Shown here piece after piece: positions 548-41,483 of a DNA stretch of 47,508 nucleotides (position 1 is the stretch's first letter; each line of letters begins with the position of its first letter). The position numbers were made by a program, and so were the translations under genes. The DNA is taken from NCBI GenBank assembly GCA_016839445.1, contig JAEOUG010000060.1, forward strand, positions 1 through 47,508, read 5' to 3'. Below the pieces are notes generated by a model. It was given only the letters and a program-made list of their open reading frames with translations. It searched no databases and had not been told where the DNA came from. This stretch comes from Candidatus Thorarchaeota archaeon. GTDB lineage: Archaea; Asgardarchaeota; Thorarchaeia; Thorarchaeales; Thorarchaeaceae.

Positions 548-2371
548 TCAAAGAACAGTGACTGATTTCGCTAGATTTCGTGGTTTGTCAGGATCGTAAC
601 CCTTCTTCACGGCCATGTAGTAGCTGAAGAGCTGCAGGGGCACAACGAAAGCCATCGTGCTGAACTCAGGTTCCACACTCTCTGGAACAATGAAGACGTC
701 ATCAGACAGTGTCCTAAGCTCCTCGTCATTGCGCTCGATGACTGCCACAATTCGAGCACCTCTGGCCTTCATCTCCATGATATTGCCAATAAGGCGATTC
801 CGAGTTTCATCCTTGGGCGCCACGAATATCACAGGATAGCCGTCTTGGACTAGGGCAATGGGGCCATGCTTCGATTCACCCGCAGAGTAAGCTTCCGCAT
901 GATTGTAGGCAATCTCTTTCAGCTTCAGCGCACCCTCTTCAGCAGTGGCAATCGAGATTCCCCTGCCCAAGAAGAGAAGACTCGGCGCATCATAGAGCAT
1001 CTGAGCCAGCCTTCTGGCCGGTTCCTCGTTCCTTGATATTATCTCCGAAATGATACTTGGCATGGTTTCAAGAGCCGCTCTCTTCTTCTGTAATGCTTCC
1101 CTCTTCCTATGACCCGATTTCTCACCGACCGCCAATACAAGAAGCCCCAGAGCGGTCAACTGCACCATGAACGTCTTAGTGGCAGCAACGCCAATCTCTG
1201 GTCCTGCTTGTGTGATGATTGTATGATCCGCAAGCCTTGTCACAGAGCTTCCTACAACGTTCGTGATGGCTACAACTTTTACTCCGAACCGTTTGGCGTA
1301 CTTAATCGCGCTTATGGTGTCTGTTGTTTCTCCTGATTGTGTAATAGCAATAATACAGTCCTTCTCACTTAATGCATCACACACTGTATCTGAGAAGTCG
1401 CTCGCCAATTCAAAGGTTGGCACGATCCCTGTGAGTGATGTGAACATGTGCCTCCCAGATATTGCAGCATGCCCTGATGTGCCCATTGCCAACAGATACA
1501 CTCTGTCACATGATTTCACAATCTCGGCTGCCTCCTCTATTACCTCCGCCCGTAATCGTAGAGTGTTCCTTATGGCATCAGGCTGTTCATGTATTTCCTT
1601 CAACATGAAGTGCGGGTAGCCGCTTTTCTGAGCTTGGTCTGCCGTCCAGCTAATCTTGATTGGTTCTCTTTCTATTCTAGCCCGCTTGTCAAGCTTCTCA
1701 ATCTTCACATCATCTGGTGTTATCGACGCAATCTCACCGTCGAGAAGAAGTATCATGTCGTTTGTCATTGGTAGAAAGGCAGGTATATCCGATGAGACAT
1801 AGTTTGCTCCTTGCTTCTGCCCGATGACCAAAGGATTACCATCTCTCGTACAGACTATCTTCTCTGGATCCGAAGTAGACATCGCTACAATAGCATAGGT
1901 TCCTTCAATTCGATCAGTGACCAGCCTCAGAGCATCCTCCAAATCCATTCCGGTCTTCATCGCATCCTCAAGCATGTGTGGAATCACTTCGGTGTCCGTT
2001 TCTGATTCGAAGTGGTGTCCTTTCTCAGCGAGCTCCTTACGAAGTTCCATGAAATTGTCTATCACACCATTATGAACAACAGCAATCTTGCCACTACAAT
2101 CGAAGTGAGGGTGTGAATTGAACAATGAAGGAATTCCGTGTGTGGCCCAGCGGGTATGACCAATTCCTATGGAACCCGGCATGTCATCCAGGTTTAGTTT
2201 CCTATGCACTTCCTCAATCTTGCCCTTGTCTTTCTTGACATGAATCTCTCCATTGGAGATTGTGGTAACCCCGACGGAGTCATATCCCCTATACTCCAAT
2301 CGTTTCAGAGCTTGGTGTAGAAAGGATGCAACTTCACCTCGTTCCTGAACCACACCAATGATCCCGCACAT
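548..2371 (-). CDS. glmS: Glutamine--fructose-6-phosphate aminotransferase (isomerizing)
   Basis: N-terminal MCGIIG, LEYRGYDS, GHTRWATHG, two SIS domains, and C-terminal PDKPRNLAKSVTV. Confidence 0.98.
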   Translation of the reverse strand: MCGIIGVVQERGEVASFLHQALKRLEYRGYDSVGVTTISNGEIHVKKDKGKIEEVHRKLNLDDMPGSIGIGHTRWATHGIPSLFNSHPHFDCSGKIAVVHNGVIDNFMELRKELAEKGHHFESETDTEVIPHMLEDAMKTGMDLEDALRLVTDRIEGTYAIVAMSTSDPEKIVCTRDGNPLVIGQKQGANYVSSDIPAFLPMTNDMILLLDGEIASITPDDVKIEKLDKRARIEREPIKISWTADQAQKSGYPHFMLKEIHEQPDAIRNTLRLRAEVIEEAAEIVKSCDRVYLLAMGTSGHAAISGRHMFTSLTGIVPTFELASDFSDTVCDALSEKDCIIAITQSGETTDTISAIKYAKRFGVKVVAITNVVGSSVTRLADHTIITQAGPEIGVAATKTFMVQLTALGLLVLAVGEKSGHRKREALQKKRAALETMPSIISEIISRNEEPARRLAQMLYDAPSLLFLGRGISIATAEEGALKLKEIAYNHAEAYSAGESKHGPIALVQDGYPVIFVAPKDETRNRLIGNIMEMKARGARIVAVIERNDEELRTLSDDVFIVPESVEPEFSTMAFVVPLQLFSYYMAVKKGYDPDKPRNLAKSVTVL

Positions 2372-2454
2372 TCGCTTGCTTCCTCAAGGACAGAATGGAC
2401 TAAGCTTGCAGAATTGTGCAAAAAGCGTTTGTATTCTGTCACACAACTACTCTG

Positions 2455-2766
2455 CTATCCTGTCAATTCGATTTCGATATAGACTGAGTCGGGAATTCTA
2501 ACTCGCATTATCTGGCGGATAGCACGCTCATCAGCATCAATGTCAATGAGTCGTTTGTGAACACGCATCTCCCACTTGTCCCATGATTCAGAGCCTTGTC
2601 CGCAGGGAGTCTTCCTGGTAGGCACCAGCATCCTTCGCGTAGGAAGTGGGATGGGACCTGCCATCCGGACTCCTGTCTTCCGAGTTATCCTCTTGATTTG
2701 ACTACAGACACCGTCTAGGTGCTCTGTACTGGTACTCGAAAGTCGGATTCTTGCTCTCTGAGTCAT
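2455..2766 (-). CDS. rps10: 30S ribosomal protein S10 (uS10)
   Basis: [11 protein letters not shown]...GPIPLPT...[25 protein letters not shown]. The likely start is the ATG at 2766, inside ORF 2455..2880. Confidence 0.97.
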
Positions 2767-2916
2767 CTTGATTCCTCGATACAGATGGAAGCACTGGGAG
2801 CGCTCAAGGCTACCGACGAATCTGATGTGGATAAAAAGCTTGTCTTGTGAATGATGATTCCAGGAAAAAGGAACGTCCATAAAGTGGGGACTCCATCTGA
2901 TATCTGAGTGTAGACA

Positions 2917-3714
2917 GTGAAGGAGCTCGTGATAATCAAGCTTGGAGGGTCGGTCATTACTCGCAAGAAGCAGTCCCCTCCGACGACAGACAGAAGGAAT
3001 CTGTCAAGGATTGCCAAGGAACTCCAACAAGACCTCAGGCAGAAGCTGATAGTCCTAGGCGGTGGAGCGCATGGTCACCAAGCAGCTCATGCATATGGAT
3101 ACGGAGATCCGGCAACACCTTTGCCGCGTCTACTTGAAGGTGTGCCGAGAATACGCCACAGCATGTCTGTGTTGGCACTGGAGGTAGAAGAGGAATTCAA
3201 CAGACATGGAGCGAGAGTAGTCGTGGTTCCTCCCTTCACACAAGCAGTTGTAAGAGATGGAAAGGTTCTCGACTTTTCTCTCACAACGATTCAGAGGATC
3301 TTTCAGGCGGGCTTCTCAGTGATAACTCATGGTGATGTCTGTCTTGACGAAGATGGCGTCCCGTCCATCCTGTCTGGTGATACCCTCATAGCATACATGG
3401 CGAGGAATCTGGAATGCAGACAAGTCCTCATAGGAACTGATGTGGACGGAATCTATGACTCCAACCCAGAATCAAACAGGGACGCCAAGCTGATTCCAGT
3501 AGTGAACGCTGCAAATGCCAGTGAGTTGCTTGCGGGTGCAGGTCCTTCGGCAGGTACCGATGTGACCGGTGGAATGTCAAAGAAGCTCTCCGAGGTCCTT
3601 GAGATTGCACACAAACATACAGAGGTCATCATATTCAATCTGTCCGTTCCAGATAGGCTAGCCCGGTTATTGCAGGGAGAACAGGTGGTCTGCACAAGAA
3701 TCCTAGGTCAGTAG
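2917..3714 (+). CDS. Isopentenyl phosphate kinase (amino-acid kinase family)
   Basis: [33 protein letters not shown] and DVTGGM..K are typical of archaeal IPK. Confidence 0.9.
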
Positions 3715-31520: not shown

Positions 31521-32285
31521 CTACTCGTAGAGGTTGTCCCCTCCGGAAAAAACTCTCTGCAATTCACCATAGACCGTATCAAAGCCACTCATGTCCTTAG
31601 CAGAAACCGGAATTGCCCCCGCAAGACTGCCAAGGTTTGTCAGCATTTCAAGGATGTATCTGGAGTATTCCCTCTTGATTCCCTCTGCGGTGCCATCTAG
31701 CGCCCCCTCAAGAAGGTAAGGTTCCTCGCCCCACTGCACAATCTCGTCAATCTCTTCCTCCATTAGGATGTCGGATTTGCTCAGGATGTTCAACTGAGGA
31801 AGCCCGAATCGAATGCCCAAGGACACTCCAAGAAGCATACACGAGAGATATCCGGAGGGAGTTCGGGAGATGTTTGCATCCAATAGATAAAGCGAGACTG
31901 CTGTATCACCCGCTGCCAGACCTGACACCATGAGGGGGCCGGAGTTTCTGTACGCGAAGAGCTCCATCTGACCTGGGCAATCAACTAGTACGTAGTCCCT
32001 TTCCGTTTCCAGAATCTCATCTCGAAGATCGTTCACTTGGCTGACAGCCATGTCAAGGGATGCAACCAAGGCTCCGTTCGGTCCCAGCCCAAATGACTCC
32101 ATTATCTCACCGTAGTCGACATACTCTCTGATGTCAACGTCGCTAGTGTAGGGCGGAGAATCGACTCCCGGGTCAAGATTCACAACAGCCACACTGAGAT
32201 CTGACCCTATCAGCCACTTCTCCAGAGATGATGTGAGCAGGGACTTACCGGATCCTGCAGTTCCTACTAGAAACACGAAGTACAT
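31521..32285 (-). CDS. GPN-loop GTPase
   Basis: GTAGSGKS, VNLDPG, GLGPNGAL (GPN motif), DCPGQMELF, LSKSD, VSA. Confidence 0.95.
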   Translation of the reverse strand: MYFVFLVGTAGSGKSLLTSSLEKWLIGSDLSVAVVNLDPGVDSPPYTSDVDIREYVDYGEIMESFGLGPNGALVASLDMAVSQVNDLRDEILETERDYVLVDCPGQMELFAYRNSGPLMVSGLAAGDTAVSLYLLDANISRTPSGYLSCMLLGVSLGIRFGLPQLNILSKSDILMEEEIDEIVQWGEEPYLLEGALDGTAEGIKREYSRYILEMLTNLGSLAGAIPVSAKDMSGFDTVYGELQRVFSGGDNLYE

Positions 32286-33186: not shown

Positions 33187-34482
33187 ATGGAGTTCACAAT
33201 GGAAATCAATGACCCCATTCACGGATTCATTGGACTCTCCGATATCGAGGCCAAGATAATCGATTCGGAAACATACCAACGACTGCGAAGGATTAAGCAA
33301 CTCTCTGGCGGCCACTTTGTCTATCCGACTGCCGAGCATACTCGTTTTGCTCATTGCATCGGAGCGATGTACGTCGCCGGATTGACAGCGCAGAGGCTGC
33401 TGAAGCAACTTGGGCTGGGCGACGATGTACTTCAGGAGGTCCGAATCGCCGGACTTCTGCATGATGTGGGTCATGGTCCATTCAGCCATGTCTTCGAGGA
33501 GTCCCTGCTGGAAAGCCGTGGTTGGAATCACGAGGATGTGACTGAATGGATCATTCTCACCAGTGAGCTAGCAGACATCTTGGGAGATGGTGGAATCTCC
33601 AAGAAACGAATAGCTGATTTGGTCAGAGGTCGCCGGAAGACGAAGAAGGATGCGGTGGTCAGTGGGATTGTAGCCGGTCAAGTGGACGCAGACAAGATGG
33701 ACTACCTCATTCGTGACTCATTCTACTGCGGCGTCAACTACGGACTGATCGACCTGCACAGACTGATAAACAGCCTGGAGTTCACCAAAGATTACATCAT
33801 GCAGTTCGACATCGCCGCCAGAGGCGCGCTAGAGGCCTTTCTAGTCGCTCGATATGAGATGTTCTTGAATGTCTACTACCACAAGACCGTGAGAAGCGTA
33901 GAAGTGATGCTGGTGAAGCTCATTAATGCGGCTGATAGTGTGTTGGCCCTTACTGGCTTCAAGACGCCCGAGGAGTTTCTCGAGCTAGACGACATGTCCC
34001 TTGTATCAAAGGTACGCAGAATCGATCCAAAGGAGTCAGATGATGCCGAAGAAGCACACAGAATGATGAGTCTCCTAGACTCTAGGATTCTCTACAAATC
34101 AGCTTTCGAGAAAGTCCTCCACACGGAAGACCGGTTTGTGTCCAAAGTCTTAACGAAGCCACGTGTCAGAGAGAGTATTCAAGATGAGATTGCATCAATT
34201 GCCGGCGTACCAGAAGAAGACGTGATCGTCGATGTTCCAACTCTCCCTTCTGTACCATACAATATCCATCAACTTGATCCAATGGAGATTGGTATCTTCG
34301 AGGTCGTCGATGGCAGGAGAGTCTCACGTAATCTGTCAGACTACTCCAACATCGCAGAGATGATGAAGGTCTATCTGGATGTGATTCGTGTCTACACCTT
34401 TGACAAACACCGTGCTAAGGTAGGTCGAGCGGCAAGAGAGGTCTTTGAAGAGGTTCCCGATACTGCCCTCATTCACATGTAA
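33187..34482 (+). CDS. HD-domain phosphohydrolase (COG1078, SAMHD1/dNTPase-like)
   Basis: INDPIHG, QRLRRIKQL, HTRFAHCIG, LLHDVGHGPFSH, DADKMDYL.RD, VYYHK. Confidence 0.92.
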   Translation: MEFTMEINDPIHGFIGLSDIEAKIIDSETYQRLRRIKQLSGGHFVYPTAEHTRFAHCIGAMYVAGLTAQRLLKQLGLGDDVLQEVRIAGLLHDVGHGPFSHVFEESLLESRGWNHEDVTEWIILTSELADILGDGGISKKRIADLVRGRRKTKKDAVVSGIVAGQVDADKMDYLIRDSFYCGVNYGLIDLHRLINSLEFTKDYIMQFDIAARGALEAFLVARYEMFLNVYYHKTVRSVEVMLVKLINAADSVLALTGFKTPEEFLELDDMSLVSKVRRIDPKESDDAEEAHRMMSLLDSRILYKSAFEKVLHTEDRFVSKVLTKPRVRESIQDEIASIAGVPEEDVIVDVPTLPSVPYNIHQLDPMEIGIFEVVDGRRVSRNLSDYSNIAEMMKVYLDVIRVYTFDKHRAKVGRAAREVFEEVPDTALIHM

Positions 34483-34511
34483 GAGTGTAGCGGGCAGTAA
34501 CCTCTGTGGTG

Positions 34512-34565
34512 ATTATATAGCCCTGGAACGGATGCTCTATTGACCTAACCGTTCCATACGGGGCT
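34512..34565 (+). promoter_or_regulatory. TATA box plus inverted repeat upstream of the roadblock operon
   Basis: ATTATATA at 34512-34519, then AGCCC-TGGAACGG-N17-CCGTTCCA-TACG-GGGCT. Confidence 0.45.
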
Positions 34566-34573
34566 GAATATTC

Positions 34574-35521
34574 TTGAGCGACGAACTAACGGAAACCCTG
34601 CAGAACATCAAGACTATCACTGGGGTAGAAAACGTTGTCCTGATTCAGAAGGATGGGCTTCCTGTGGCAAGCGCAGGAGTCTGGTTCAGCAAGGAGGAAG
34701 TATTCGCCGTCGCATCATCAACCTGCGCTATCTTTGGAGTGGCCCGTCTGATTCACGGGAGCTTTCGCTATTTGCTCATGGAGTCGGATACTTCCAAAGT
34801 CTTCCTTGCATCGTTGCCAAATGACCCAGACTACTTCCTCACTGTGACTACGGCGCCTCGTGTGAATCTGGCCGCGCTTTTCATTGAGATGAACGACAGC
34901 CTCTCTCGCCTCTCCTTTCTGCTTCGTCAGCACGTGGACGGCCGCTTACCTCCACTCCGTTCATACAGCTCCGAAGAAACCCAGAAGGTTCTGCAAGGCT
35001 TCGCAGTAGCTGAAGGCCGCGATACAACCTATGGAATGACAAGATCGATAATCTCGCTAGATAGATCACAGGCACTCACTCTAAGGGCTTTGCTTCGCCA
35101 AGTACATGACTCAATCCCAAACATCGAATCGGTGTTTCTCTCTCTTAGCGGAGGTGTGCGAGTCTCTCTCGAAGGCTTCACCAACGACCGCTTGGCTGCT
35201 ATGTCCTTTGCCCTCCACGATGCCTCTGAGAGAGTGGTGAGAACCCTCCGCAACAGCTCCCTTCAGACGGTTCTATGTGAGACCGAGTCAAGTAGGCATT
35301 TCATCTACTCGGTCCCGAACGGTGTCTTCAGTCTCTGGGTGGCAAAAGACAACCAGAAGCTCGGGCTGATGCGTCTACTGCTCAAACACTACATAGAGGA
35401 AACAAGACGTGTGCTAGCGGCCGCATCTGCCGCGAAGCCGGCAATCCCAGATGAGCTGAAGGAACTACTGCTCTCAAGATCTTCTGAGAGTGGCTTGATT
35501 GTATCGAGGAAAGACCCATGA
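34574..35521 (+). CDS. Tandem Roadblock/LC7 (MglB/LAMTOR-like) domain protein
   Basis: Domain 1: L..I..ITGVENVVLIQKDGLPVAS...VNLAALF.EM. Domain 2: LL.QV..SIPNIESVFLSLSGG...LAAMSFAL...KLGLMRLLL. Both fit the alpha-beta-beta-alpha-beta-beta-beta-alpha roadblock pattern. Confidence 0.8.
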   Translation: MSDELTETLQNIKTITGVENVVLIQKDGLPVASAGVWFSKEEVFAVASSTCAIFGVARLIHGSFRYLLMESDTSKVFLASLPNDPDYFLTVTTAPRVNLAALFIEMNDSLSRLSFLLRQHVDGRLPPLRSYSSEETQKVLQGFAVAEGRDTTYGMTRSIISLDRSQALTLRALLRQVHDSIPNIESVFLSLSGGVRVSLEGFTNDRLAAMSFALHDASERVVRTLRNSSLQTVLCETESSRHFIYSVPNGVFSLWVAKDNQKLGLMRLLLKHYIEETRRVLAAASAAKPAIPDELKELLLSRSSESGLIVSRKDP

Positions 35522-36438
35522 CATATACCATTCTGAGCCTCATTGAACTGATGGAAGACCAGTTCCCAGTACTACTCAATGCAGTCCTAGAGAGAATGCC
35601 AGTGCTCGTGGCAGGCGAAGACATAGAGCTAATCGACGATATTGCTGAGAGTCTAACCACTCTCTGTCCTCATCGTCTTCGTCTGATGTTCTGGCGTGAC
35701 TTCACATCAGAAGCTGACATTCTTTCTGTCTGGGAGGAAGAGAAACACGACTATGACGTGAGTCGGACTGTAGTCTGTGGTCTCTCATCAAACCTGAGGT
35801 TGGCACTGGAGAGAATAGCCCACTTCAATGGCTGGGTCTTGGCCATTCCACTGGGATCCAGAGTTCTGGGAATGAGTGTTGATGAAGGAATCCTTTCAGA
35901 AGTCACGGACCACGTACTCAAGAAGTCGCCAGACTGCGGGATTCTCAGAGTACGCTCTCCATCATCCATGGAATTCTCCATGAAATCGGGCACTGACAGC
36001 AGCCTGGCAGTGGAGAAGAAGACTGTAGAGAAGATTCTCGTAAGGAAGAAGCAATCACTTGAGAGGATACGACGTCTTCTCAGCAAATCCCTCAGAGGAC
36101 TGAATGTTTCTGATGCAATCATGAAGGCAGTGCTGAAGCTCGATGATGAGTCTGAGAAACTGACACAGGATGTCTTCGAGGAGGAAATCAGCAATTATGT
36201 CCATGCAGCCAGAAGGGCGGTCACTCTCCTCTCACGAATCCGCCTTGCGAGAGAGCTCGGTGCATCAACTACACTCACTGAACGCAACCTCTACGAGGCT
36301 ATCGGGTGGGACTCTGGTGAGATGCCGGACCTGATACGCTTCATTAGGGCAGAGTGGCATGAGGACTTCTCTGACTGCGTGAAGAGTGGGGCCCTCTCTG
36401 GATTGGGAGCGTGGGTTGACAGTATGTGGGGCGCATAG
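35518..36438 (+). CDS. Hypothetical protein with cDENN/folliculin-like N-terminal segment
   Basis: FPVLLNAVLERMPVLVAGEDIELIDDIAESLTTLCPHR resembles the cDENN 'LL.ALL.ER.I.....L....AL..LL.P' motif. It is translationally coupled to the roadblock gene (4-nt ATGA overlap). Confidence 0.5.
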   Translation: MTYTILSLIELMEDQFPVLLNAVLERMPVLVAGEDIELIDDIAESLTTLCPHRLRLMFWRDFTSEADILSVWEEEKHDYDVSRTVVCGLSSNLRLALERIAHFNGWVLAIPLGSRVLGMSVDEGILSEVTDHVLKKSPDCGILRVRSPSSMEFSMKSGTDSSLAVEKKTVEKILVRKKQSLERIRRLLSKSLRGLNVSDAIMKAVLKLDDESEKLTQDVFEEEISNYVHAARRAVTLLSRIRLARELGASTTLTERNLYEAIGWDSGEMPDLIRFIRAEWHEDFSDCVKSGALSGLGAWVDSMWGA

Positions 36439-36450
36439 GAGAGAACAAGG

Positions 36451-37032
36451 ATGATCATAGACTACGGCAATCGAACGATCGGTCTGAAGATTGTCTTCTT
36501 CGGACCCGCAATGAGCGGCAAGACTACCGCCATAAGATGGCTCTTCTCCGCTTTCGACTATAGCGACAAACTGACATCCATAGAGAACACTGTGGGAAGG
36601 ACCATGTTCTGCGACTTCGGGACTATACCTTTCCCGCTTAGCGCTGTGTGGTCAGTGAATGCACACATTTGGTCTGCGACAGGCCAGGACTTCTATCGGT
36701 CCACGCGAGAGGTTGTCCTTGTTGGGGCTGATGGTGTGGTGTTCATGGCCGATTCTCAGCGTCATCTATTGGACGAGAATCTCACAAGCTGGAATGAACT
36801 TATGGCCACCATGGCTGAGGAAACAAGGCCGCTTCCCCTGGTCATTTGTCTCAACAAGCAAGACATTCCTGGAGCCATTGAGGAAGAGGAGATTCGGCGT
36901 CACCTGAAGGTTCCGGGCTCTGTCCCCGTCTTCAAGAGCATCGCTAGTCAGGGTCACAGGATCTTGGACGCATTCGAGTATATCTTCCAGGCTGCCATGC
37001 GTGCCAGCACGTTGGTACAGCCTGTTTCATAG
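36451..37032 (+). CDS. MglA-type (Ras/Arf-superfamily) small GTPase
   Basis: N-terminus IDYGNRTIGLKIVFFG; G1 GPAMSGKT; switch I TVGRTMFCDF with intrinsic Arg; atypical G3 SATGQ (compare MglA TVPGQ); GADGVVFMADSQ; G4 NKQD; G5 SIA. Confidence 0.9.
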   Translation: MIIDYGNRTIGLKIVFFGPAMSGKTTAIRWLFSAFDYSDKLTSIENTVGRTMFCDFGTIPFPLSAVWSVNAHIWSATGQDFYRSTREVVLVGADGVVFMADSQRHLLDENLTSWNELMATMAEETRPLPLVICLNKQDIPGAIEEEEIRRHLKVPGSVPVFKSIASQGHRILDAFEYIFQAAMRASTLVQPVS

Positions 37033-37107
37033 GCGCTTCTTGCCGAATGACATCGAACGATTTATACGACCACAAACGTCTGCGGCCACAGTCCAATAGA
37101 ATCGCCC

Positions 37108-38802
37108 GTGGTGAGCCTCTACTTGAGTTCCAAAAGGGATAGCACTAGGTTTGTCTTCATAACTGGTGGAGTACTCTCTGGCATTGGCAAGGGTGTCACC
37201 ACCGCCTCCATCGCCAAGCTCTTCCAATTCCGAGGATATTCTGTCAGGATAATCAAGATTGATCCTTACCTCAACATTGACCCGGGGACATTGAATCCTA
37301 TCGAACATGGTGAGGTCTTTGTGACAGACTCTCCTTGGGTCTTCAGACCAGTTGAGGGAGTCGAGTTCAGAATCTCGGAGATAGACTTGGACTTCGGTAC
37401 ATACGAGAGGTTCACGGGCCTTGAAGTACACCCCTCGCAGAACATTACTTCCGGGCAAATCTACATGTCTGTCATCCTTGAAGAGCGAAGAGGCGGATTC
37501 CTCGGAAGAACTGTGCAAATAATCCCGCATATCACTGACAGAATCAAACAGCGGATCTGGGAGGTTGTCGAAGAGAAATCGCCGCCTGACATCCTCTTGG
37601 TCGAGATTGGAGGCACTGTCGGCGATATCGAGGCCGCTCCCTTCCTTGAGGCTGTGCGCCAGCTGGCTCGTGAGGTCGGCCGTGAGAGAGTAGCAATGGT
37701 TCACGTAACCTTGGTGCCGTACATGAAGTCCGTCGGCGAGTTCAAGACGAAGCCAACGCAGCACAGCGTTCGTACAATACAGAGCTTGGGGTTGCAGCCT
37801 GACATCGTGATATGTCGCGCTGAGAAACGTCTTCCTGAATCGGCCAAGGAAAAGATTGCACTCTTCTGCAATGTACCATCCGAGCAAGTCATTTCGAATC
37901 CTGACATCTCCATCATCTACCAGCTCCCCCTCTTCTTCGAACACGAAGGCCTTGGAAGAATCTTGATGAAGCATTTTCATCTTGATGATCATGACCCTGA
38001 AATAGCTCAGTGGAAGGAGATTGTTGAATCTTTCAAGAACCCCACTGAGCACGTTGTCATAGCCATGCCTGGGAAGTATACAACCCTGGGTGACTCCTAC
38101 AAGAGCATAAACGAAGCTCTTGCACACGCAGCAGCCTGTTGCGGCGCGGAGGTTGAAGTCAAGTGGATTGAGACTGAAGAGAGAACAACAGAGGAGTGCC
38201 TCACTGAAGACCTGTCTGATGTCGATGGCGTTCTGCTGACTCCTGGATTCGGTGAACGCGGTGTTGAGGGCATGATCTGTGCGGCCATGGTGACTTTCCG
38301 CACCAAGATACCCTTCCTAGGTATCTGTTATGGAGCCCAGCTTGGGTCTGTCGCTTTTGCCAGGAAGGTGATGGGCTGGAAAGGGGCGCATACGACAGAG
38401 GTTGATCAGGACAGCCTCTACCCAGTAGTAGATCTGATGGACGACCAGAAACAGATGGAGGACAAGGGCGGCACCATGCGTTTGGGTGGTCATGAGGTCG
38501 TAATCGAGAAGGGAACCGTACTCCACAAGACCTATGGTGTCGACAAAGTACGGGAACGTTTTCGTCACAGGTACCATCTCATTGACCGTTACCTCAACAA
38601 GATGAGGGATAGCGGTCTCATAGTATCCGCCTTTGACTCGTCCCGACGGATAATCAATGCAGTGGAACTCAAGGATCATCCCTTCTGGGTCGGAGTTCAG
38701 TTCCATCCTGAGTTCAGGTCAAGGCCTGGTCAGCCCCACCCGCTTTACTTGGGCCTAATAAGGGCCGCAATCGAATACAAAAGAGTGAGAGGGAATGGCT
38801 AG
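37108..38802 (+). CDS. pyrG: CTP synthase
   Basis: FITGGVLSGIGKG, KIDPYLN.DPGT.NP.EHGEVFV, KTKPTQHSV, GICYG, RHRY, QFHPEF. Confidence 0.98.
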   Translation: MVSLYLSSKRDSTRFVFITGGVLSGIGKGVTTASIAKLFQFRGYSVRIIKIDPYLNIDPGTLNPIEHGEVFVTDSPWVFRPVEGVEFRISEIDLDFGTYERFTGLEVHPSQNITSGQIYMSVILEERRGGFLGRTVQIIPHITDRIKQRIWEVVEEKSPPDILLVEIGGTVGDIEAAPFLEAVRQLAREVGRERVAMVHVTLVPYMKSVGEFKTKPTQHSVRTIQSLGLQPDIVICRAEKRLPESAKEKIALFCNVPSEQVISNPDISIIYQLPLFFEHEGLGRILMKHFHLDDHDPEIAQWKEIVESFKNPTEHVVIAMPGKYTTLGDSYKSINEALAHAAACCGAEVEVKWIETEERTTEECLTEDLSDVDGVLLTPGFGERGVEGMICAAMVTFRTKIPFLGICYGAQLGSVAFARKVMGWKGAHTTEVDQDSLYPVVDLMDDQKQMEDKGGTMRLGGHEVVIEKGTVLHKTYGVDKVRERFRHRYHLIDRYLNKMRDSGLIVSAFDSSRRIINAVELKDHPFWVGVQFHPEFRSRPGQPHPLYLGLIRAAIEYKRVRGNG

Positions 38803-39965
38803 TGGACAGGGACCTCGACAGGATGCTCTCTCAGCTCGTGGAACAGATTGAGAGAATCGAGGTTACAAGGACTGAGTTCGGAGGAGTACTAAGAGAGATC
38901 AAGGGGTCTATAGACCTAGGGAAATTCCCAGGCATTGCTTCAGATATTCCTGAGAAGAGGTTCGTGAAGCCTATTGCGCCCGTGGACCTATCCGGACTTG
39001 GCATTGCAGGTGTAGACGGAGGCCTCACTCGAAAACGGTTCCGATCCATGGACCTCATACTGACCCGAGGCATAGCAGTAGTCTTCCATTTTGGCCCAAA
39101 GGAAGGGCCCACTGTGAAGTTCTTCCCCGAGCCCTTCCCAGAACCTGTCGTGAAGCCCATGCTTTTGACTCTCTCTGGTCTCGAACTGGAGCAACTGGCG
39201 TCCTTGGAGAGGACTGCGGCGGAGATACGTGTGGCCCTAGCTGTACTGGAAGAATTCGAGGCAGACCTCATTCTCATGGACGGGTCTCTCTTCTATCATC
39301 CCCGAGATCGCCCGCAGACGGGCTCACCAGCCTATGAGAGGTTTCAGGAGGTCCAAGCCCTCTACCGACAGTTGTACAACAAAGCAATCAGAAGCGGAGT
39401 TGCCCTCATTGGTGTCGTCAAGGACAGCCGGTCAACCAGAGTCACTCACATCATGGGAGATGTTCTCCCACACATCCTCAGGGATCCATCTATCTTCGAG
39501 AAGATGCAGGGAATCGACTATCGTTGGTTGTTGAAGAACTCCCGTGATTGTGACATCCTTGACACGTTTCTCGAAGAGGGAGAACGGTCCTTCGCGTTCC
39601 GGTATTCCTCAGAAATTCCAGCCAGTTCAAACTCACTAGATGACGAGATCAACAAGTGGGCTTCTTCAATCTGGGTTACGTATCTGAAGACTGCTTCAGA
39701 GGATCTACCTATCAGAATCGAGATGCTCCTGAACCCTGAAACCGGCCTTGAGCCCGAGAAACTCGACAGAGCGTTGGCTGCCATTCTTCCGCTTTCATGG
39801 CAGCATCCAGAGTACGGAATTCCATCTCCCATACTTGAGGCCGATACTCGTGCGAAAATCACTCTGAAAGAAACTCAGCTCATCGTAGACCGTCTGATGG
39901 CCCTATCTGGTCTTACCTACACAACTCTTGAGAAGAGACGTTCGAGAAACCCATTTGGAGGCTAG
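38802..39965 (+). CDS. nurA: DNA double-strand break repair nuclease NurA
   Basis: AGVDGG, E..V, LMDGSL, GVVKDS, YGIP.PILEAD.RAKI; lies upstream of herA. Confidence 0.9.
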   Translation: MDRDLDRMLSQLVEQIERIEVTRTEFGGVLREIKGSIDLGKFPGIASDIPEKRFVKPIAPVDLSGLGIAGVDGGLTRKRFRSMDLILTRGIAVVFHFGPKEGPTVKFFPEPFPEPVVKPMLLTLSGLELEQLASLERTAAEIRVALAVLEEFEADLILMDGSLFYHPRDRPQTGSPAYERFQEVQALYRQLYNKAIRSGVALIGVVKDSRSTRVTHIMGDVLPHILRDPSIFEKMQGIDYRWLLKNSRDCDILDTFLEEGERSFAFRYSSEIPASSNSLDDEINKWASSIWVTYLKTASEDLPIRIEMLLNPETGLEPEKLDRALAAILPLSWQHPEYGIPSPILEADTRAKITLKETQLIVDRLMALSGLTYTTLEKRRSRNPFGG

Positions 39966-39968
39966 AGA

Positions 39969-41483
39969 ATGAACGAATACCCGCAACCAAGTCGGCTAGG
40001 GACCGTAATCTGCACAGACTCGGGTCCGAATGTGATGGAGTTCTCCTTTGTCGTTGAGGGAGGACCAAATGACATCATCGCCAGAAGAGGCGAGTTCGTG
40101 TCCGTTGTCACAGAAAGCGGCATTGTGATTGCACGTATCCAAGACCTCACAAGGACTAATCGGTACTACCAGCACGCGGAAGCTGTTCGTGAATACCAAT
40201 CACGAGGGGAGCCACTCAGAGCCATATTCCCAACAGACAGATGGCAGTACACTGTGGCAAGCGCTCGGGTTCTGGGACTGTGGTCTGATGGTCATACAGT
40301 GAGACCGTACTTCGCAGTTTCACCAGGAGCGACGGTGAGAAGTGCCGATGAGGATACGCTGGGCAGATTCCTCAGACTTGACTCGCAAGATGGGCTTGAC
40401 CTCGGCACCGTGGCATACCAAAATCTCGCGTTTACGCCGTCCATTGATCGTCTGGTGTCCAAACACCTAGCCATCCTAGCCATGAGTGGTGCAGGGAAGT
40501 CATACTTCGTGTCCGTTCTCTTAGAAGAGATACTCAAGAGAACACCTAAGCAGGGGCGGCTGTCGGCTGTTGTTGTGGATGTCCACGGCGAGTATACATA
40601 CCTCAAGGATGCAGGACCCGAGAGTCTGGGAATGAAACCTAAGGACTTCGATGTCGAGGTAGTAAAGGGCTCACACTTTCAGATACCAGTTCAAGCTCTA
40701 TCTGCAGAGGGCATTGGTGCCCTGGTCGCAGATATGAGTTCCATCCAGATTCGAGACCTGCGTAGAGTCATAGCAAACGCCCGAACTCACCTCGAAGGAA
40801 GTTACAGCCTCGGTGAGCTAGCCACCTTGATTCGGGAGGATGAGACGATAAGCCGAAACACCCGGGAGGCGTTGACTAGTTGGCTTGTGAGTCTTGATGA
40901 AACAGGGCTCTTTGGAAAAGAGGGTGTACCGGATATCAAGCGTCTCATTCGTCCTGGTAGACTCACAATCATTGATCTGAGCGATTTTATCAGTCTCAAG
41001 AAGAAGCAAATCGTCGTTTCACACCTTGCCTCAGAGCTCCTCTATCTTAGAAGGCGAAACGAGATTCCGCCGTTTCTCTTTGTCCTAGAGGAGGCTCACC
41101 AGTTCTGCCCCGAGAGTAGGCATGAACTGGCCTTGCCAAAGGGCAGGATTGAGACCATTGCTCGTGAGGGCCGGAAGTTCTATGCACTACTGTGTCTGAT
41201 ATCTCAGAGACCTGTCAAACTCTCAACAACAGTCTTGAGTCAGTGTAGCAACCAAGCTATTCTTCGATGTACAAATCCCTACGATCTTGACCACATAGGG
41301 AAGTCAAGTGAAGGAATCGACAGGTCCTCCCTTGATGCCATTACCACACTTGAGATAGGTGAGGCGCTGTTTGTTGGAGAAACCGTGTCGGTCCCCACCT
41401 TCGTGAAGATTCGCCACAGACATCTGGAACCCACTGGGCTTCCTAGGAGTCTGTCTGAGGCCATAAAGCGTTCCGACAAGTGA
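39969..41483 (+). CDS. herA: DNA translocase HerA
   Basis: HAS-barrel N-terminus, KHLAILAMSGAGKS, DVHGEY, LEEAHQF, IAREGRKF, SQRP, LSQC. Confidence 0.93.
   Translation: MNEYPQPSRLGTVICTDSGPNVMEFSFVVEGGPNDIIARRGEFVSVVTESGIVIARIQDLTRTNRYYQHAEAVREYQSRGEPLRAIFPTDRWQYTVASARVLGLWSDGHTVRPYFAVSPGATVRSADEDTLGRFLRLDSQDGLDLGTVAYQNLAFTPSIDRLVSKHLAILAMSGAGKSYFVSVLLEEILKRTPKQGRLSAVVVDVHGEYTYLKDAGPESLGMKPKDFDVEVVKGSHFQIPVQALSAEGIGALVADMSSIQIRDLRRVIANARTHLEGSYSLGELATLIREDETISRNTREALTSWLVSLDETGLFGKEGVPDIKRLIRPGRLTIIDLSDFISLKKKQIVVSHLASELLYLRRRNEIPPFLFVLEEAHQFCPESRHELALPKGRIETIAREGRKFYALLCLISQRPVKLSTTVLSQCSNQAILRCTNPYDLDHIGKSSEGIDRSSLDAITTLEIGEALFVGETVSVPTFVKIRHRHLEPTGLPRSLSEAIKRSDK

Follow-up and report, generated by a model that had tools for sequence, protein, structure and literature searches.

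In eukaryotic membrane traffic and nutrient signalling, the Rab, Rag and Arf GTPases are regulated by DENN/folliculin-type proteins and by roadblock/longin domains. The present study concerns a three-gene locus from Candidatus Thorarchaeota archaeon (contig JAEOUG010000060.1, assembly GCA_016839445.1) that encodes a tandem roadblock protein (here RB2), a protein with a predicted DENN fold (MID) and a small GTPase of the MglA type, at positions 34574..37032 of a stretch of 47,508 nt, which is referred to below as the window. The closest described system is an operon predicted in a preprint by Liu et al. (10.1101/2020.10.19.343400), the available text of which calls it "conserved in most Asgard archaea", names three products, namely a Roadblock protein like LAMTOR1, a DENN-domain protein and a small GTPase that is Rab-like and distinct from Rag, and proposes that it forms an FLCN-like guanine nucleotide exchange factor (GEF) module. 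Judged from the text of the preprint, the operon considered here is very probably the same one. Since 2020 both the operon itself and its comparison with FLCN have been in print, and this is not a new kind of system.

Further points of comparison come from bacteria. In its available part, the survey of Wuichet and Sogaard-Andersen (PMC4316618) characterizes Group 1 MglA proteins by an Arg beside the Thr of the G2 motif and by a G3 motif, TVPGQ, that keeps the Gln and has no Asp; MglB proteins by a conserved Asp-Gly pair; and the actinobacterial conservon by a kinase (CvnA), a roadblock protein (CvnB), CvnC and an MglA-like GTPase (CvnD). MglA-like GTPases have already been recognized in Asgard archaea (PMC10933270; 10.1101/2024.02.28.582541), and DENND10-like folds in prokaryotes were noted, and taken no further, in PMC13392464. 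In the literature covering Asgard archaea, DENN and MglA together we found no link drawn among the three. The additions made here are the catalytic set of the GTPase, predicted to be of MglA type, the inequality of the two fused roadblock domains, synteny counts over 201 genomes, the DENN-less paralogous pairs and one more confirmed copy of the operon.

We consider it probable that many Asgard archaea keep a self-contained switch of three genes, built around a small GTPase, as a single operon, and that the locus is its Thorarchaeota copy. According to the list of open reading frames (ORFs), the three genes lie on the plus strand, with RB2 at 34574..35521 (315 aa, TTG start), MID at 35518..36438 (306 aa, ATG start) and the GTPase at 36451..37032 (193 aa, ATG start). 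The stop of RB2 and the start of MID overlap by 4 nt (35518-35521), and a spacer of 12 nt (36439-36450) separates MID from the GTPase gene. An earlier note, written from the letters of the DNA, had described these co-oriented, tightly spaced genes behind a TATA box and had taken their products for two fused roadblock domains, a DENN/folliculin-like protein and an MglA-like GTPase with the motifs GRT and SATGQ. The ORF coordinates and a conserved TTATATA confirm the layout, and the analyses of the individual proteins, given below, agree with each of the three assignments.

The arrangement is kept well beyond the source genome, as the survey of Asgard synteny called for in the same note showed. 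MID was found in 31 of 41 relative genomes, comprising the source genome, 23 of 24 further members of its genus and 7 of the 16 other Asgard genomes. The order RB2-MID-GTPase is preserved in all loci compared by tblastn (19/19), with overlaps or short gaps throughout, and these three genes are the only ones common to eight divergent loci, the flanks of which vary. In a wider survey, for which an even draw of 201 Asgard genomes was searched with profiles, MID was matched in 111 genomes, with E <= 1e-17 in 108, and RB2 in 113. RB2 is present in every one of the 108 MID-bearing genomes, and families without MID are also without RB2 (e.g., family f5, 0/21). Within the 108 genomes, RB2 lies directly upstream of MID in 105 and the GTPase directly downstream in 104. 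The five exceptions are three genomes in which a contig ends at one of the genes (G088, G183 and G194) and two genomes of family f9 with MID on another contig (G156 and G198). MglA-like GTPases as such are near-universal (192/201 genomes at E <= 1e-35, paralogues counted). The three-gene arrangement is far beyond chance. That the genes are chance or lineage-specific neighbours with no functional link has next to no probability, since their order and tight spacing persist across several Asgard families at these frequencies, whereas the flanking genes change.

Assignment of the middle protein depends on its structure. MID has no match in Pfam (E <= 0.1) or NCBIfam, and its family is small: a search of 1.84 billion proteins gave 65 representative clusters at E <= 0.001. 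Its AlphaFold2 (AF2) model, based on 38 sequences, has a predicted local distance difference test score (pLDDT) of 90.6 and a predicted template-modelling score (pTM) of 0.86, and divides into a cDENN-like alpha/beta part of five strand-helix units (residues 1-157, nt 35518-35988, plus strand) and a dDENN-like part of long helices (residues 164-303, nt 36007-36426, plus strand). When the model was run with VIA-align against 48,161 chains, ranks 1-5 and 7 were taken by DENN modules, with Z scores from 13.3 to 9.8 and alignments over both halves of the protein (residues 1-292). The best match was DENND10 (8p0v_M, residues 157-357; Z 13.3), followed by the C-terminal DENN domain of FLCN (3v42_B, residues 345-558; Z 13.2), with 187 residues aligned to the 199-residue chain at a root-mean-square deviation (rmsd) of 3.5. 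Lower scores were obtained for a second FLCN chain (6nzd_H, Z 12.8), SMCR8 (6lt0_B, Z 11.3), C9orf72 (7o2w_A, Z 11.2), DENND1A (6ekk_A, Z 9.8) and FNIP2 (6ulg_N, Z 7.4). Foldseek gave no match to MID in the PDB at E <= 0.001, and it placed the FLCN chains 6ulg_L, 3v42_B and 6nzd_H at a probability of 0.99-1.00.

Sequence hints within the family point the same way. Pfam Folliculin_C is weakly matched by 3 of the 38 family members (best E 4.8e-4) and is the only Pfam family matched by more than two of them; Pfam DENN is matched by one (E 0.093). The named Atlas clusters nearest to MID are C9orf72-like (0.96) and Folliculin_C/SMCR8_C (0.92), other near ones being SPA, DENND11 and Avl9, and all the nearest clusters belong to the DENN clan. 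Taken with the model, these data support for MID the combined cDENN and dDENN fold of folliculin, DENND10, SMCR8 and C9orf72.

The same searches also returned ATPases, and MID could be read as an ATPase domain of the RecA/P-loop-like kind that has degenerated and carries a helical lid, its likeness to DENN being convergent or functionally too remote. VIA-align places such ATPases over MID residues ~1-160, with an archaeal RuvB-like helicase at Z 10.2, VirB11/HP0525 at 9.6 and GspE/CpaF at 9.3-9.4; an RFC clamp-loader chain ranks first by E-value in Foldseek; and the window MID has no Pfam DENN match of its own. Most of the ATPase alignments, the best included, end near residue 165, and three type IV/secretion ATPases (GspE, FlaI and a chain of the type IVa pilus machine) extend to residues 226-268, whereas the DENN modules score higher (Z 13.3-11.2) and span both the alpha/beta and the helical part (residues 1-285). 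The AAA+/ATPase rows of Foldseek have TM scores of 0.22-0.27, with an rmsd above 19 Å at ranks 1 and 5-8. In the 38-sequence alignment, no Walker A motif (GxxxxGK[ST]) occurs in the loop after strand 1. With the Folliculin_C hints and the DENN-clan neighbours in the Atlas added, the ATPase reading of MID is very improbable.

Three results nonetheless weigh against a DENN assignment. P-loop/RecA-like ATPases do reach Z 10.2 on the alpha/beta half; the MID family profile, compared with PDB sequences, found no DENN protein; and the window MID matches neither Pfam DENN nor Folliculin_C, at the curated threshold or at E <= 0.1. Given the last two, the assignment rests on the predicted fold together with weak sequence hints. 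The ferritin-type PDB entries retrieved by the same profile (E ~2e-3) were set aside as chance matches of long helices.

With a DENN fold adopted for MID, the extent of the domain can be described. Residue 1 aligns with the start of the C-terminal DENN domain of FLCN (residue 345), and the chain opens with the cDENN helix, so that MID would be a stand-alone DENN core rather than a full tripartite module. No longin/uDENN domain is present in the modelled chain of 306 aa, and when longer relatives of MID, with fused domains, were sought, none turned up, which is weak evidence. A 294-aa ORF without a Pfam match (locus L022, 2747-3631, on contig C1 of genome G026) weakly resembles the N-terminal cDENN motif of MID (hhalign probability 66%, E 5e-5, 57 columns, ORF residues 100-156), and frames of ~320 aa akin to it occur in G025 and G060. 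Its neighbours are PAC2 and unrelated enzymes, with no GTPase or roadblock gene among them. A remote paralogue of the DENN-like kind, with one more domain at its N-terminus, is a possible reading of this ORF.

The GTPase carries the motifs G1 GPAMSGKT, switch I GRT (residues 49-51, with Arg50), G3 SATGQ (Asp-less, with Gln79) and G4 NKQD. Pfam assigns it to Arf, Roc and Ras. The best solved relatives are MglA structures (6hjh and 3t12; E 8e-30, 107 bits), and the next one, an Arf, follows at a distance of 72 bits (E 1.5e-7, 34 bits). GRT and SATGQ align with DRT and VPGQ of MglA. In the 11 orthologues compared, R50, T51, A76, T77, G78 and Q79 are invariant, as are GPAMSGKT and NKxD, and G3 takes the form [ST]ATGQ. 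The motifs and the ranking of relatives support an MglA-type GTPase with a putative intrinsic Arg and a Gln-bearing G3. It is not a Rag: Gtr1_RagA is matched at E 0.038 and 13.8 bits, under the cutoff of 22, and the protein is a single G domain of 193 aa. The label "Rag/Ragulator/FLCN-like" given to the locus by the earlier note stands as no more than an analogy, the GTPase not being a Rag and an arginine-finger longin domain being absent.

RB2 belongs to the Roadblock/LC7/MglB family, by both Pfam and fold. Robl_LC7 is matched in two stretches (E 2.7e-10, 40.3 bits, cutoff 23), NCBIfam gives no match, and a search for homologues of RB2 retrieved Thorarchaeota near-copies only. Its AF2 model (16 sequences; pLDDT 78.4, pTM 0.77) consists of two alpha-beta-beta-alpha-beta-beta-beta-alpha units, domain 1 at residues 3-120 (nt 34580-34933, plus strand) and domain 2 at residues 164-286 (nt 35063-35431, plus strand), with low confidence in the linker between them and in the C-terminal tail. 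In Foldseek, the model matched a Streptomyces roadblock protein (3kye), the Thorarchaeota roadblock 7f8m, LAMTOR2 and MglB (probability 1.00, target-normalised TM 0.7-0.8), as well as the multi-longin proteins Mon1/Ccz1 over ~300 columns. The internal repeat is invisible by sequence, since BLASTP of one half against the other gave only an out-of-register match of 38 residues (E 3e-4).

The two domains are unequally conserved. Over eight divergent orthologues, mean pairwise identity reaches 40.8% in domain 1 against 26.2% in domain 2, and 12 of the 15 invariant columns of RB2 fall in domain 1. Among the residues invariant in all 16 sequences are D27, G28 and P30; the D27-G28 pair, found in domain 1 only, recalls the Asp-Gly pair of MglB. 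The compact two-domain model and the difference in identity are in line with the suggestion, made with the first reading of the locus, that the fused roadblocks form an asymmetric single-chain body.

A mechanism can be proposed by analogy with MglAB and DENND1. RB2 would replace the MglB homodimer as a single-chain dimer of two roadblocks. Its conserved domain 1, with the invariant Asp27-Gly28, would provide an asymmetric contact with one GTPase molecule, and hydrolysis would be stimulated as RB2 brought Arg50 and Gln79 of the GTPase itself into position. We slightly favor such a part for RB2, that of an MglB-like asymmetric binder and hydrolysis stimulator. MID would be a second regulator of the same GTPase, if so with nucleotide exchange, on the model of DENND1-Rab35, as its most likely activity, and together with RB2 it could make up a non-covalent version of the longin-DENN module. 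The GEF role for MID is put forward tentatively, with the odds somewhat against it.

Variants of the locus bear on the part played by MID. In ten genomes of family f12, RB2 and the GTPase occur as a second pair, with the two genes 50-100 nt apart and MID absent from between them (loci L024-L033, e.g., positions 275-1804 of contig C40 of G110); in most of these genomes the pair exists beside a full three-gene operon. In the two genomes of family f9 mentioned above, G156 (L034/L036) and G198 (L035/L037), RB2 adjoins the GTPase and the DENN-fold gene is on another contig; the G156 copy is not near contig ends, and the G198 copy is divergent (profile E 6e-25). A GTPase tree was built from Asgard copies only, with a midpoint root for drawing, and has several long branches. 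It includes nine of the ten f12 DENN-less GTPases, the tenth having matched over too short a stretch. These nine form one clade (95/91) within the group of RB2-linked GTPases; that group separates, with support 91/94, from three further MglA-like paralogues, of which two belong to the source genome. Because of the f12 pairs and the f9 split, the DENN protein appears not to be obligatory in cis and could be an accessory; the roadblock-GTPase couple looks like the core of the system, with DENN as an added partner.

The variants are what would be expected if RB2 and the GTPase were already a complete switch, like MglB-MglA, and MID were an effector reading the state of the GTPase or an adaptor anchoring it to a membrane or a partner. 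The grouping of the GTPases of DENN-less pairs with the DENN-linked ones in the tree fits this, as does the low conservation of MID, which with a mean pairwise identity of ~25-28% is the least conserved of the three proteins (47% for the GTPase). So does the FLCN-FNIP complex, whose catalytic arginine is located in the longin domain rather than in the DENN domain. For FLCN-type GTPase-activating proteins (GAPs), the available text of PMC12290439 describes a longin arginine finger, or GP motif. MID is, however, found strictly together with RB2 (108/108 genomes, and neither protein in families lacking MID), and its start codon overlaps the RB2 stop by 4 nt. DENN domains of the DENND1 type, moreover, act as direct GEFs, 6ekk being the complex of DENND1A with Rab35. 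On balance a two-part switch of this kind, and with it an adaptor or effector role for MID, is possible and rather doubtful.

The reading of the locus as a self-contained three-gene switch has to be set against several observations: the DENN-less pairs and the f9 split just described; the G3 motif of the GTPase, [ST]ATGQ, which differs from TVPGQ of Group 1 in its first three residues and is thus a variant form; the literature on Asgard DENN proteins, in which we found no bench work on the module; and, as regards co-transcription, the RNA data. In three metatranscriptome runs from two studies, one contig of 207-233 nt each was found (at least 99% alike), all of them within MID, and these contigs cover 35542-35832 only and span no gene junction. 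They are compatible with expression of the gene, and also with carry-over of DNA. The same 5' part of the DENN-fold gene recurs in all three runs, with no contig elsewhere in the operon, from which nothing follows for the other parts. A structured or antisense RNA at 35542-35832 was considered and dropped, as folding was no better than that of shuffled sequences (z -1.1 and -0.7 for the two strands).

A TATA box, TTATATA, is located at 34513..34519 on the plus strand, 54 nt 5' of the RB2 TTG, with a conserved block, GTGTGGTG, ahead of it. Across 12 aligned loci of the genus, the stretch TTCTGTGTGGTG[GA]TTA[TA]ATAG and the leader 3' of it are near-invariant, whereas the DNA 5' of the TATA block diverges. 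The start codon of RB2 is TTG or GTG in all 12 loci. Directly 5' of it lies a purine-rich leader (34560..34570, plus strand), GGGGCTGAAT here and GGGGCTGAGGA in relatives, for which position and conservation suggest a putative Shine-Dalgarno-like role. The conserved TATA block and leader have the form of a phylogenetic footprint, and we take them for that of the predicted promoter. A TTTATA at 37061-37066, within the 75-nt spacer ahead of the downstream CTP synthase gene, may be that gene's own promoter. A scan of 34000-37500 against Rfam found no RNA family.

The operon is flanked by an HD-domain hydrolase upstream and by the CTP synthase downstream. The former, a phosphohydrolase gene with HD and HD_assoc_2 domains, occupies 33187-34482 (plus strand), beyond a GPN-loop GTPase gene (ATP_bind_1) at 31521-32285 (minus strand); the latter, pyrG, occupies 37108-38802 (plus strand) and is followed by the abutting genes of a NurA-HerA pair, at 38802-41483 (plus strand). 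These HD, pyrG and NurA flanks were seen again only in a relative from the same order (L015). A 366-aa ORF at 37027-38127 on the minus strand is antisense to the CTP synthase gene, shares 6 nt with the end of the GTPase gene and is most likely a shadow ORF of pyrG.

Additional GTPase genes were noted in two places. The source genome has a second roadblock-GTPase cluster (L020; contig C180 of G000, 695-3360, minus strand) that comprises three roadblock genes of one domain each (99, 154 and 123 aa, of which one is LAMTOR5-like and one MAPKK1_Int/LAMTOR3-like), a 126-aa ORF without a Pfam match and an MglA-like GTPase 40% identical to that of the operon, with no DENN-fold gene. In genome G032, a very divergent small GTPase of 228 aa is encoded ~470 nt downstream of the operon (L019, 3700-4386), on the minus strand, opposite to the operon, and has a long branch in the tree.

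The prokaryotic roots of DENN and roadblock regulators bear on how the eukaryotic cell originated. In one scenario the DENN domain would have its origin in archaea, where a gene of its own within the operon encoded it and where, next to two fused roadblocks acting as a pseudo-dimer, it regulated an MglA-type GTPase equipped with its own arginine finger; the DENN and roadblock partners would have fused later, giving the eukaryotic longin-DENN proteins, whose clients became Rag, Rab or Arf GTPases. We hold this to be speculative and, at present, on the unlikely side. Were it true, FLCN/FNIP, C9orf72/SMCR8 and the DENND proteins would descend from fused operon partners, and the f12 DENN-less paralogues would imply that a single DENN protein is able to serve two switches in trans. 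As a compact unit that can be expressed and that unites a bacterial-type, MglA-like GTPase with two roadblocks and a protein of DENN fold, the operon suits tests of the original role of DENN.

With the eukaryotic FLCN-FNIP, C9orf72-SMCR8 and DENND1/DENND10 proteins the operon shares the cDENN and dDENN fold predicted for MID, and MID, like their longin-DENN modules, goes together with a small GTPase and a domain of the roadblock/longin type. The operon differs from them in that no longin domain is fused to MID and in that the GTPase is of the MglA type rather than a Rag, Rab or Arf. The catalytic longin arginine, or GP motif, of FLCN-type GAPs, as given in the available text of PMC12290439, has no counterpart in MID, and the operon GTPase is without the C-terminal roadblock domain of Rag that marks the Rag-Ragulator-FLCN system.

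Likeness to MglA-MglB of Myxococcus xanthus and Thermus thermophilus (3t12, 6h5b and 6izw) lies in the intrinsic Arg, the Asp-less, Gln-bearing G3, the NKxD motif and the encoding of a roadblock regulator beside the GTPase. One MglA is reportedly bound per MglB dimer, a result ascribed to Miertzschke and colleagues in 2011, and the fused two-roadblock chain could mimic such a dimer. In contrast to MglB, the roadblocks here are fused and unequal rather than a homodimer, the G3 motif is [ST]ATGQ in place of TVPGQ, and a DENN-fold gene lies between the roadblock and GTPase genes; we know of no DENN-fold protein in bacterial MglAB systems. The conservon has a similar gene order, from a roadblock gene through a gene of unknown function to an MglA-family GTPase. 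Unlike it, the operon has no histidine kinase among the genes common to the eight divergent loci, and its middle protein, of 306 aa, has a predicted DENN fold. The Group 2 MglA proteins of the conservon, as described in the available part of PMC4316618, are without the intrinsic Arg and the Lys of NKxD (NxFD), whereas the operon GTPase has both.

The nearest system remains that of Liu et al. (10.1101/2020.10.19.343400). The GTPase is called Rab-like there, whereas the closest solved relatives here are MglA proteins and an intrinsic Arg is present, and the available preprint text is silent on a tandem of two unequal roadblock domains. As far as that text goes, the two descriptions have in common the same three parts, a GTPase other than Rag, wide conservation in Asgard archaea and the proposal of an FLCN-like function.

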